Origin: Candidatus Heimdallarchaeota archaeon B3_Heim
GTDB taxonomy: Archaea > Asgardarchaeota > Heimdallarchaeia > Hodarchaeales > Hodarchaeaceae
Direction of reading: 5' to 3'
Assembly: GCA_003144275.1 (NCBI GenBank)
Contig: NJBF01000049.1
Location: 1 to 22,346, forward strand
Length of the DNA: 22,346 nucleotides
Below the pieces are notes generated by a model that had not been told where the DNA came from, did not search any database, and saw nothing but the letters and a program-made list of their open reading frames with translations. The translations under genes were made by a program, and so were the position numbers. Shown here piece after piece: positions 1,106-3,845 of this stretch (within the stretch, counting starts at the first letter, position 1; every line of letters begins with the position of its first letter).

Positions 1106-1981
1106 CTATTTCCTACTTTGAAAACGATACAAATCCATGTCCGTTACTGGCCGATAGCCGATTTTCTGATAGATTTTGTTTGAGGTTGGATTTGCTAAGT
1201 CAGTAAACAAAAAACAATACTTTTTTCCTTCGGAGAGAATTTTCTGACTCAATTTGGCGACCACTTCTGTAGCGTATCCCTTTCTACGTTCATTCGGAGG
1301 AGTATAGACTGCATTTACTGTCTGCCCATTCGGCGTCACATGAGCTCTTTTTACCATCGAAACAATTTTCCCATTGACCTTCAGAACATAAACCATCTGG
1401 TTTTGTAATCCTTGTTCCATTCTTCGTTGAGAAGATTCGATATGTGCTGGTTCAGTTGATCCTTCGGGAAGGACTTCAAATAAAAATTCTTTTCCCATTT
1501 TAAGAATGATCTCTTTATCATCTGCAGTTGCCAATTCGAATATATTTTCCCCTAATGTCTCTGGATTTACGGTATCTAGTCTATATATACGTTCATGAGT
1601 TTCTAAAAAGTAATCCTGGCCTTGACCTTCTCCCCACATTTGGGTAAATCTCAAAGTACCTTCTTTAAATCCTAAAACTCCTGGAATGTCCATTTGTTTT
1701 TTGATTAGTTCCTTAACAAGGGTATCAATTGTATCCAAGTCGTCTGTATAAGAAATAAGTTGATTAAAAGGAGGAGTACGAATAGAAACCAGCTTTAATT
1801 TACCACGTTCATTCTCCACGGAAATAAATGTCGGATTCTCTTCTTTACTATAAGTATGAAAATCTTGTTTCAAGGTATTCAATATACCGATGAGTAAGTT
1901 ATTTTCTGCTTCATGTTCTAGTAAGAAGGGTAGAACATAATCACTATATTCGTCAATGTTAGAATGAAAGGTGAGTTTCAC
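1106..1981 (-). CDS. GNAT family N-acetyltransferase (COG3393/FR47-like)
   Basis: C-terminal GNAT signature VYTPPNERRKGYAT...LFTDLANPTSNKIYQKIGY with an intact acetyl-CoA motif A. Start placed at GTG 1981, 8 nt after GAGGA; the ORF track starts at TTG 1996. Confidence 0.9.
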   Translation of the reverse strand: MKLTFHSNIDEYSDYVLPFLLEHEAENNLLIGILNTLKQDFHTYSKEENPTFISVENERGKLKLVSIRTPPFNQLISYTDDLDTIDTLVKELIKKQMDIPGVLGFKEGTLRFTQMWGEGQGQDYFLETHERIYRLDTVNPETLGENIFELATADDKEIILKMGKEFLFEVLPEGSTEPAHIESSQRRMEQGLQNQMVYVLKVNGKIVSMVKRAHVTPNGQTVNAVYTPPNERRKGYATEVVAKLSQKILSEGKKYCFLFTDLANPTSNKIYQKIGYRPVTDMDLYRFQSRK

Positions 1982-2450
1982 CAGAATATTCCTCAATTGA
2001 AAATGACTAAGAATGCTTTATGTCATTTTCCTAGAGAACAAAAGCACTAAAGTCAGTGAAAATACGCTTATTCTAAACCTAATACCCATTATTGTTTTAG
2101 TGACGAATTAATTCCCATTAGATGACTAGTAGCAGAGTATCTTTCCATTACAGAGCTTATTCCAGTTTTTACTTCTGGTAGAATCGGTATATTTGTATCA
2201 TCTTTAATTCTTCTTTGAGTGGATGCAGTAATACGTAAAATTGTTACTCTTGAATTTGATATTGTGTTTGGTCATAACTAAGTAGTACTAGTGTCAGCTA
2301 TTGCTGTTTTTCAAAATTATGTGAAAGATCTATCTTCCCACCTCTAGCTATAATTCAACTTGTTCATGTACACTCAGATGAGTCTTGTCATGGGTTAGCT
2401 TTCTTCATCATTCGTCATCTGATGGAATAAGTTTTTAAAGGGGATAGTTC

Positions 2451-2458: not shown

Positions 2459-2507
2459 GAACTCACGTCAAGTTACCTGATGATAAAATAAAAGGAATCT
2501 GAAAAAA

Positions 2508-2780
2508 ATGGCAAAGAAAAAAGTAGACAAAAAACCAGCTAAAAAAGCAGCACCTAAAAAATCAGGGTCTGGAGCTGGCGGATTTGCAAGTGCAAGGGTT
2601 GAACGATTAATTCGTGATGCAGGAGCATTCCGAGTATCAGCAGATGCAGTCGATGCACTAAATACAGTACTTACCGAGCATAGCTTGAAAATGTCAAAAT
2701 ATGCAGTTGAGATTTGTAATAACTCTGGACGTAAAACTGTCAAAAGTGATGACATCAGACTAGCAGCCTCTAAAATGTGA
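2508..2780 (+). CDS. Archaeal (HMf-type) histone with a Lys-rich N-terminal tail
   Basis: Residues 26-90 align with HMfB (RVERLIRDAGAFRVS...GRKTVKSDDIRLA vs IGRIIKDAGAERVS...GRKTIKAEDIELA). Residues 1-25 (MAKKKVDKKPAKKAAPKKSGSGAGG) contain 9 Lys. Confidence 0.95.
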   Translation: MAKKKVDKKPAKKAAPKKSGSGAGGFASARVERLIRDAGAFRVSADAVDALNTVLTEHSLKMSKYAVEICNNSGRKTVKSDDIRLAASKM

Positions 2781-2819: not shown

Positions 2820-2846
2820 CTCTCTGAGAGGTTAGAGAGCTTTTTT
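2820..2846 (+). terminator. Putative terminator after the histone gene
   Basis: CTCTCT (2820-2825) / AGAGAG (2834-2839) stem followed by TTTTTT (2841-2846). Confidence 0.45.
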
Positions 2847-2987
2847 CACCATACCAGATAAAATGGTAGGTATTAACCATATAACAATAATTTCTAGCTT
2901 ATTCTCTACTTGTACTGGGAATTTTGTATCAGCAAATGTGATTTTTTCATGACTATGCTTAAATAATATCTTTTAATGACTTCTCTT

Positions 2988-3845
2988 ATGAGCAATATTC
3001 GAACTATACATCGAACCCAGCCAAGCTTTCCAACAATGGATGGAGCAGGTGTTAAACTTAAACGTGTCTTTAGTCATCAAGAAACCAGTCTCTTGGATCC
3101 ATTTTTGTTACTCGATGCGTTTGGTTCCGAAAACCCAGACGATTACATTGCTGGATTCCCATGGCATCCTCATAGGGGAATTGAAACTGTAACGTACATG
3201 TTAGAGGGCCTTGTCAAACACGAAGATAGTATTGGGAATTCAGGCATTCTAAACGGTGGGGATATTCAATGGATGACAGCAGGTAGAGGAATTATTCATC
3301 AAGAAATGCCCCAAGTGTCAGAGGGAAAATTAGCTGGTTTCCAGCTATGGGTAAACCTCCCAAAATCTCATAAATTAATAGATCCTAGATATCAAGATAT
3401 ACAAGCCGCAAAAGTACCAGAAATTCAGCTAGATGATGGCATAAAAATTCGTGTACTTGCGGGTGATTATAACGACACTAAAGGACCAGTAAAAGACATC
3501 ATTGCTGAACCCCAATATCTTGACGTTGAAATTCCATCAGGCCAAACTTTTAAACACACTCTGAAAGATGGACACACTGCATTTGCTTATGTTTTCAAAG
3601 GAAAAGGTAAATTCGCTCCAGATAGCGACAAATACTTTGATATGGACAATTTAGTCATTTATAATCGAAACGGGGATAGAATTCAAGTTACCGCAAGTGA
3701 TGACGATAAATTACGTTTCCTCTTAATTTCTGGCAAACCAATAAATGAACCTATCGCTTGGGCAGGACCCATTGTTATGAATACCGAAGAAGAACTACGT
3801 ATTGCCTTTGAAGAATATCGTAATGGTACTTTTCTCAAAAAATAG
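2988..3845 (+). CDS. Pirin family (bicupin) protein
   Basis: Pirin motifs DPFLLLD, HPHRGIETVTY, QWMTAGRGIIHQE and GPIVMNT. TTAAATA at 2959-2965 favours a leaderless start at ATG 2988; the track start is 2976. Confidence 0.95.
   Translation: MSNIRTIHRTQPSFPTMDGAGVKLKRVFSHQETSLLDPFLLLDAFGSENPDDYIAGFPWHPHRGIETVTYMLEGLVKHEDSIGNSGILNGGDIQWMTAGRGIIHQEMPQVSEGKLAGFQLWVNLPKSHKLIDPRYQDIQAAKVPEIQLDDGIKIRVLAGDYNDTKGPVKDIIAEPQYLDVEIPSGQTFKHTLKDGHTAFAYVFKGKGKFAPDSDKYFDMDNLVIYNRNGDRIQVTASDDDKLRFLLISGKPINEPIAWAGPIVMNTEEELRIAFEEYRNGTFLKK

Follow-up and report, generated by a model that had tools for sequence, protein, structure and literature searches.

Which form of chromatin would be built by an archaeal histone that carries a lysine-rich N-terminal tail and lacks the usual histidine at its dimer-dimer interface? 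The question is raised by a gene in a window of 22,346 nucleotides, the whole stretch of DNA analysed here, which belongs to a metagenome-assembled genome of the Hodarchaeales within the Asgard archaea (3.9 Mb, 94% complete). Hodarchaeales are the closest known archaeal relatives of eukaryotes, and their tailed histones bear on the origin of tails, marks, and bounded nucleosomes. Judged from its sequence, the gene probably specifies the only nucleosomal histone variant of this archaeon with a Lys-rich tail, of the HMpB/HLoB type, and this variant would favour looser or open assemblies. The features discussed below are collected in Table 1.

Table 1. Positions of features in the window (position 1 is its first nucleotide) and of related loci elsewhere
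Feature	Position	Strand	Basis or remark
GNAT acetyltransferase (FR47/GNAT_acetyltran type), 296 aa, divergent, 511 nt upstream of the histone gene	1106..1996	-	Profile match; candidate tail writer
TATA-like box TTTTTAAA	2432..2439	+	DNA alignment; inferred promoter of single-gene unit
Three in-frame stops TGA TGA TAA, closing the frame upstream of the ATG	2478..2486	+	Sequence
Tailed histone gene, 90 aa + stop	2508..2780	+	ORF, profile matches, HMfB alignment
N-terminal tail, residues 1-25, hinge SGSGAGG at its end	2508..2582	+	Composition, AlphaFold2 disorder
Histone fold, helices 28-37, 45-73, 80-89	2589..2774	+	AlphaFold2 model, conservation table, HMfB offset
Ala50 (= HHoB Lys29, stacking residue)	2655..2657	+	HHoB structure paper, conservation table
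Asn71-Asn72	2718..2723	+	HMfB alignment, HHoB papers, conservation table
Terminator-like hairpin then T-run, 40 nt past the stop	2820..2849	+	Consensus scan only; role inferred
Tandem histone doublet, 142 aa	G000:C27:8590-8997 (L003/L008)		Source genome
Protein of 366 aa, N-terminal histone fold at residues 16-74	G000:C61:26711-27811 (L010:1456-2556)		Source genome
Histone-fold frame, GTG starts only	G000:C57:167830-168018 (L001)		Source genome
Eis-like gene + K-tailed histone pair	L030:2482-3750 with L030:3950-4213

On the evidence of profile matches and a structural model, the 90-aa product is an archaeal nucleosomal histone with a canonical fold. It matches Pfam PF00808 over residues 28-86 (E=1.2e-13, 51.5 bits, cut-off 21.4) and the NCBIfam family archaea_histone NF043032 (E=1.5e-21, 76.5 bits, cut-off 50), and an AlphaFold2 model based on 33 homologs predicts three helices with pLDDT >90. 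The match to HMfB (1A7W) is ungapped, with query residues 29-88 lying on chain residues 6-65, so that a numbering offset of 23 applies and N72 is equivalent to His49, D82 to Asp59, L85 to Leu62, and I69 to Leu46. The DNA anchors R10, R19, K53, and T54 of HMfB are kept as R33, R42, K76, and T77, and its fold salt bridge R52-D59 is kept as R75-D82. Likewise, the DNA-contact set of HHoB, an untailed histone of the same order (R9, R15, R21, K55, and K58), is found as R30, R36, R42, K76, and K79. The tetramer interface of HMfB (L46, H49, D59, and L62) reads I69, N72, D82, and L85, with three of the four positions kept. The ungapped alignment confirms what an earlier note had read from the letters, namely that Asn stands at the His49 position while the equivalents of Asp59 and Leu62 are retained, and the site does belong to the dimer-dimer interface, as that note held.

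By the criteria of Henneman et al. 2018, the small residue at position 16 is kept (Gly16 as G39) and the dimer-dimer interface is scored +/-. The HMfB stacking pairs K30-E61, E34-R65, and R48-D14 correspond to T53/R84, E57/S88, and N71/D37, none of which is a salt bridge; other residue pairs may take their place. As far as the alignment goes, the change from His49 to Asn lowers the status of the protein as a canonical hypernucleosome former, not its membership of the family.

Ten PF00808 matches are present in the source genome, of which two come from the same doublet, one from each half. Five untailed histones of 67 residues have RH or KH before SGRKT (an untailed paralog lies at G000:C4:67679-67855), and the window gene is both the sole long-tailed histone of this genome and the sole one without His at position 49. 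The approximately 290 residues that follow the histone fold in the 366-aa protein have no Pfam match. The nearest named records of the window histone come from the Hodarchaeota MAGs YT1_021, YT2_004, YT2_065, and MAG_8, with a fold identity of 92-97%. Exactly one K-tailed ortholog was found in each of 15 of the 24 genomes of the order. Fourteen of these orthologs start with M-[A/P]-KKK and the one in L027 begins MPKAKKK; the K/A/P composition of the tail is kept across the 15 species, although their folds are only 58-68% identical.

A tree was calculated from the fold without the tail and without the diagnostic columns. The K-tailed orthologs form one clade (support 93/79), and the window gene falls in a subclade with Asn at HHoB position 51, the equivalent of His49 (95/84). 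The reading of the gene as an Asgard tailed histone, here of the Hodarchaeales, is supported. The sister tailed lineages keep His, so the tail does not require the His-to-Asn change. Tailed paralogs of another type are found at L045:1778-2047 and L052:3962-4147, where the tail opens with acidic residues (MEEY...) and continues into an Arg-rich stretch. Arg29, Arg50, and His51 are kept in L045; the L052 sequence breaks off ahead of positions 50-51. In the tree, the K-tailed clade has L045 as its sister (94/82), a placement that points to a single tail-bearing lineage with later divergence. Short-tailed paralogs were also observed in related genomes (L018, L019, L020, L023, L026, L031, and L047), none of them in the source genome. 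Their tails have 8-12 residues, mostly M-x-K-K-x-K-R-K-A-G, their DNA-contact Lys at HHoB position 58 is replaced by Gln in 8 of 11, and their position 50 is Lys or Gln.

Tailed histones of this order have been described in several studies. Henneman et al. 2018 noted that the tailed Heimdall LC_3 histone HA has an H49N substitution, predicted that its dimer-dimer interface would be weaker and its hypernucleosome floppier, and remarked that tailed histones tend to bear interface substitutions (PMC6136690). A 2024 review describes groups of histone paralogs that are conserved in Hodarchaeales, some of them tailed (PMC10919886). More recently, the tailed Hodarchaeales histone HMpB.1 was reported to be highly abundant, with methylated tail lysines that lie within a KKKxxKPA stretch, and in vitro acetylation of a Loki tail by a Loki GNAT was shown (Cho et al. 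2026, bioRxiv 10.64898/2026.07.02.735847). Tail proteomics, a check urged by the earlier note, has been done on this related protein (bioRxiv 10.64898/2026.07.02.735847). The HMpB/HLoB type was defined by Cho et al. 2026 by a disordered tail of approximately 16-32 aa with >30% Lys and a pI of approximately 10.5, on a nucleosomal fold. With 25 aa, 36% Lys, a pI of 10.54, and predicted disorder (pLDDT <50 for residues 6-23 in the AlphaFold2 model from 33 homologs), the tail of the window histone falls within this definition.

HMpB.1 (BEU34764.1, Ca. Margulisarchaeum peptidiphilum HC1) resembles the window histone in length (93 vs 90 aa), in its disordered Lys-rich tail with KKKxxKPA near the start, in the GAFRVS motif, and in carrying Ala at position 29 (HHoB numbering) and Asn in place of His49/His51. 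By an ungapped hand count, the two are approximately 61% identical over the 64-residue fold, and a joint clade of HMpB.1 with the window clade was neither established nor rejected (p-AU 0.24, 64-column tree). In contrast to the window histone, HMpB.1 keeps Arg50, its tail exit is Arg-rich (RRTSRSRG vs a Gly/Ser hinge without Arg), and its loop 2 reads SNRRT vs SGRKT. HMpB.1 belongs to another family of the Hodarchaeales. Its abundance and Lys methylation were measured, whereas the window histone is known from sequence. HMpB.2 has Ala29, Glu50, and Gln51 (Cho et al. 2026 Supplementary Table 2, bioRxiv 10.64898/2026.07.02.735847). The HMpB.1-like representative (P0062) and HMpB.2 (P0074) lie on contigs of 1.2-1.3 kb and have no neighbours on them. 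LC_3 HA, also called HHoA (OLS22332.1), is likewise tailed; it has H49N, retains Gly16, and offers few stacking pairs. According to the text of PMC6136690, it differs in Arg48 and in R17-R19 at the tail exit, where the window histone has Asn and an Arg-free tail. Thus, both the tail and the His-to-Asn change, along with the interpretation of the latter, have been published before (Henneman 2018; Cho 2026), and the window histone is one more member of a published class, a good example and no discovery.

The closest solved protein is the tail-less HHoB of Hodarchaeales LC_3 (PDB 9QV5, 9QV6, 9QV7), with 9QV6 as the best match (E=2.6e-22, ungapped). Its structure on DNA was solved in closed and open states, with pitches of approximately 25 A and 63 A, respectively, and the interface residues were listed (bioRxiv 10.1101/2025.05.24.653377). 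HHoB positions 29 and 50 were named as stacking residues of the closed hypernucleosome, and His51 was found to act in both closed and open junctions (Ranawat et al. 2025, bioRxiv 10.1101/2025.05.24.653377). The DNA-contact residues are shared with the window histone, and Tyr44 and Glu47 of the open junction are kept as Y65 and E68. HHoB differs in having no tail and in having Lys29, Arg50, and His51 in place of Ala50, Asn71, and Asn72. The second of these, N71, corresponds to the stacking residues Arg48 of HMfB and Arg50 of HHoB, and N72 to His49 of HMfB and His51 of HHoB at the dimer-dimer interface. Relative to HHoB, two stacking residues and one open-state contact are changed, as the replacement of His by Asn72 implies loss of the Tyr44-His51 contact even though Tyr and Glu are kept.

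Conservation at every HHoB interface position was tabulated for the order, with 8 Asn-type and 7 His-type tailed histones, 11 short-tailed ones, and 25 without a tail. Within the tailed clade, all five DNA-contact positions are invariant, as are seven of the nine dimer-dimer positions; of the other two, position 51 is Asn in the subclade of the window gene and position 67 is variable. Position 29 is A or S in 15/15 K-tailed orthologs and R or K in 35 of the 36 untailed or short-tailed paralogs. At position 50, the tailed orthologs have N, G, or E, and 35 of the 36 other paralogs have R, K, or Q, a basic residue being present in 29/36 of the latter and in 0/15 of the former. Apart from positions 29 and 50, no position in the table fully separates long-tailed from other paralogs. 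Among 40 long-tailed metagenomic homologs, position 29 is non-basic in all 40 and position 50 in 38 (the exceptions have one Lys and one His), and Asn is found at position 51 in 33. The new observation here is that the K-tailed clade alone has no basic residues at these two HHoB stacking positions (A50 and N71 in the window histone). This pattern reflects the shared ancestry of one clade, not repeated independent evolution.

The loss of basic residues at positions 29 and 50 appears, from these alignments, to support weaker stacking better than the H49N change does. The earlier note had argued from Asn at the His49 position to weakened stacking. His49, however, sits in the dimer-dimer four-helix bundle and not in the stacking interface. 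A K29A/E32A/D36A mutant of HHoB forms wobbly fibres with a wider pitch (bioRxiv 10.1101/2025.05.24.653377), and the systematic loss of two experimentally defined stacking residues in the tailed paralogs predicts open rather than compact fibres.

The probable course of assembly can be outlined as follows. The histone would form handshake dimers, either homodimers or heterodimers with one of the five untailed paralogs, and each dimer would wrap approximately 30 bp of DNA. Multimers would be joined through the mostly conserved four-helix-bundle interface (I69, Y65, E68, R75, D82, and L85). Replacement of His by Asn72 is expected to weaken this junction, and without basic ‘velcro’ residues at the sites of A50 and N71, stacking contacts between successive turns would be missing. 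A softened junction together with a stripped stacking face would lead to open or irregular fibres in preference to compact, closed hypernucleosomes. Via the small Gly/Ser hinge, the tail could exit between the DNA gyres, and its lysines may provide additional DNA contacts as well as sites of methylation or acetylation, as on the related HMpB.1. Asn72 may still hydrogen-bond with Asp82, in which case the junction would be little affected.

A possible, although doubtful, alternative is that the protein forms ordinary hypernucleosomes, with Asn72, A50, and N71 near-neutral and a tail that only adds DNA affinity or bridges in trans. The DNA-contact residues, the dimer core, most junction residues, and Gly16 are all conserved, in agreement with this alternative. 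In HHoB, stacking is described as a diffuse ‘velcro’ of charges without conservation of the individual positions (bioRxiv 10.1101/2025.05.24.653377); the stacking surface tolerates variation, and the loss of two residues may be compensated. Histone marks also had little effect on stacking in simulations (Cho 2026, bioRxiv 10.64898/2026.07.02.735847). Against neutrality stand the separation of the two stacking positions described above, basic in 35 and 29 of the 36 un- or short-tailed paralogs and in none of the 15 tailed orthologs, and the otherwise high conservation of His51, which is used in closed and open junctions alike.

Another alternative, which the earlier note had suggested in supposing that the protein might cap stacks, is a capstone: with Asn72, one or both ends of the dimer would be unable to build a stable four-helix bundle, so that the dimer would end hypernucleosome growth and set the length reached. 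Position 49 is the published site that is diagnostic of capstones, substitutions at this site destabilise tetramers in simulations (PMC7776873), H49N was predicted to weaken LC_3 HA (PMC6136690), and the gene is a single copy alongside five canonical paralogs. The capstones of Methanobacteriales (Msp_0383 and Msm_1260; PMC7776873) resemble the window histone in having a paralog-specific change at position 49. In contrast to its polar, neutral Asn and its tail, they carry Glu or a hydrophobic residue at this position and no tail, and capstones as a group were described as lowly expressed paralogs with an acidic or hydrophobic residue at 49 (Stevens et al. 2020, PMC7776873). Furthermore, the remaining junction residues are invariant in the interface table, and the related HMpB.1, which has Asn, is among the most abundant proteins of its cell, which misfits a rare terminator. 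A capping role is therefore distinctly unlikely, and a looser or open assembly is the preferred reading.

The tail itself contains 9 Lys, 0 Arg, 1 Asp, 2 Pro, and 5 Ala. Its lysines are arranged in four clusters (K3-5, K8-9, K12-13, and K17-18) with PAKK and APKK motifs ahead of the hinge. The tail string given in the earlier note, which corresponds to residues 3-25, was correct in its Lys clusters, its motifs, and its Gly/Ser hinge. The likeness to H2B or H1 tails that was seen in it is compositional only: a search of solved chains with the tail alone had no hit up to E=10, and in a published comparison of k-mers the tails of Asgard archaea and of eukaryotes did not resemble each other (PMC10919886).

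The in-frame start-like codons of the gene are ATG1, TTG60, ATG62, and ATG90 only. An internal start that removes the tail, which would have undone the earlier reading, could thus be placed at TTG60 or ATG62 at the earliest, with loss of helix 1 and half of helix 2. ATG1 is invariant in four close relatives, where indels in the tail-coding part are of 3, 6, or 15 nt and those in the 5' leader are of 1, 4, and also 9 nt. Nine Lys are reached by 2 of 2,510 stop-free 25-aa windows in the six frames of the whole stretch, and nine Lys with 22/25 residues being K, A, P, G, or S by 1 of 2,510, presumably the tail itself. The GC content of the tail is 41% vs 29-33% in its flanks, which indicates that the tail is not translated AT-rich spacer. 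Taken from these sequence comparisons, the tail is translated and under selection. That it is a functionless Lys-rich by-product of a fortuitous upstream ATG in AT-rich DNA, an origin proposed as an easy route to tails generally (PMC10919886) and consistent with the use of AAA for eight of the nine Lys codons, is scarcely credible in view of the absence of an alternative start before codon 60, the M-x-KKK start and K/A/P composition kept across 15 species, the in-frame tail indels, the raised GC content, and the detection of tail peptides of the related HMpB.1 by mass spectrometry (bioRxiv 10.64898/2026.07.02.735847).

The gene appears to be expressed on its own. The box TTTTTAAA lies within a 45-nt block that is near-invariant in a DNA alignment of the four closest relatives, and together with the hairpin and T-run it putatively brackets a single-gene unit. 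Positions 2300-2900 of the window had no match among RNA runs; matches were obtained to DNA contigs only, from marine sediment and cold-seep metagenomes (<=41% of sampled words).

Acetylation of the tail lysines would call for an enzyme, and a candidate is found beside the histone in other lineages. Seven genomes of the order have the K-tailed ortholog 90-440 nt downstream of, and co-oriented with, a gene for a protein of 418-423 aa with Eis architecture (Acetyltransf_9 + Acetyltransf_17 + SCP2_2). Over all arrangements, the two genes lie near each other at L030, L017, L022, L035, L037, L041, L027, L015, L088, and L089. They are 1 kb apart in G016, 2.3 kb apart on one metagenomic contig, and adjacent but convergent on two other contigs. 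The pair survives in two lineages whose remaining flanking genes are all different. It is absent from the narrow clade of the window gene, from G002, and from two further contigs; the source genome has its Eis-like gene at another locus (G000:C47:65969-67219, 44% identity). No mention of this linkage was found in Cho 2026 (bioRxiv 10.64898/2026.07.02.735847) or in the 2024 review (PMC10919886). The Eis-like proteins have weak matches to Eis models, below the curated cut-offs, and to the GNAT-family structures 2I00 and 3N7Z, which we take to be Eis homologs. A complex prediction for the L030 Eis-like acetyltransferase and K-tailed histone gave a score of 0.00, which is no evidence either way.

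A parallel is offered by mycobacterial HupB (MtHU), the tail of which has PAKK-type Lys/Ala/Pro repeats. Like the window histone, it is a nucleoid protein with a Lys-rich tail, but its DNA-binding fold is unrelated and its tail is C-terminal. Acetylation by mycobacterial Eis reduces the binding of MtHU to DNA (PMC6135046), and orthologs of the window histone adjoin a gene of the same architecture. By this analogy, we hypothesise that the Eis-type acetyltransferase is a candidate tail writer. A fuller scenario, which we consider rather unlikely as a whole, is that the K-tailed histone is a dedicated open-chromatin variant that began paired with an Eis-type tail acetylase. The open state would result from the tail, the lost stacking ‘velcro’ residues and, in the subclade of the window gene, the lost junction His. 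The GNAT-GNAT-SCP2 enzyme would acetylate the tail and tune DNA binding, as an archaeal counterpart of Eis acting on mycobacterial HU, and the pair would have been broken in the lineage of the window, with a different GNAT now beside the histone. The ancestral neighbour is a concrete candidate for a writer, none having yet been assigned for a Hodarchaeales tail. Unless confirmed at the bench, neither this point nor the loss of stacking residues changes the published picture.

The GNAT that now lies next to the histone has its GNAT domain at residues 154-288 and no solved relative by sequence. It adjoins the histone only in the four closest relatives. There, the block GNAT-histone-pirin-hydrolase-PlsC-MFS is collinear as a whole, so that conserved partnership with the histone was rejected in favour of ordinary synteny. 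With approximately 32 PF00583 GNAT genes in the source genome, a GNAT neighbour is expected by chance in roughly 2% of cases. This GNAT evolves fast, with 59-94% identity among relatives whose histone folds have 92-97% identity to that of the window gene. The pirin gene (PF02678 + PF05726; window positions 2976-3845, + strand) lies directly downstream of the histone and is collinear with it only in the same four relatives.
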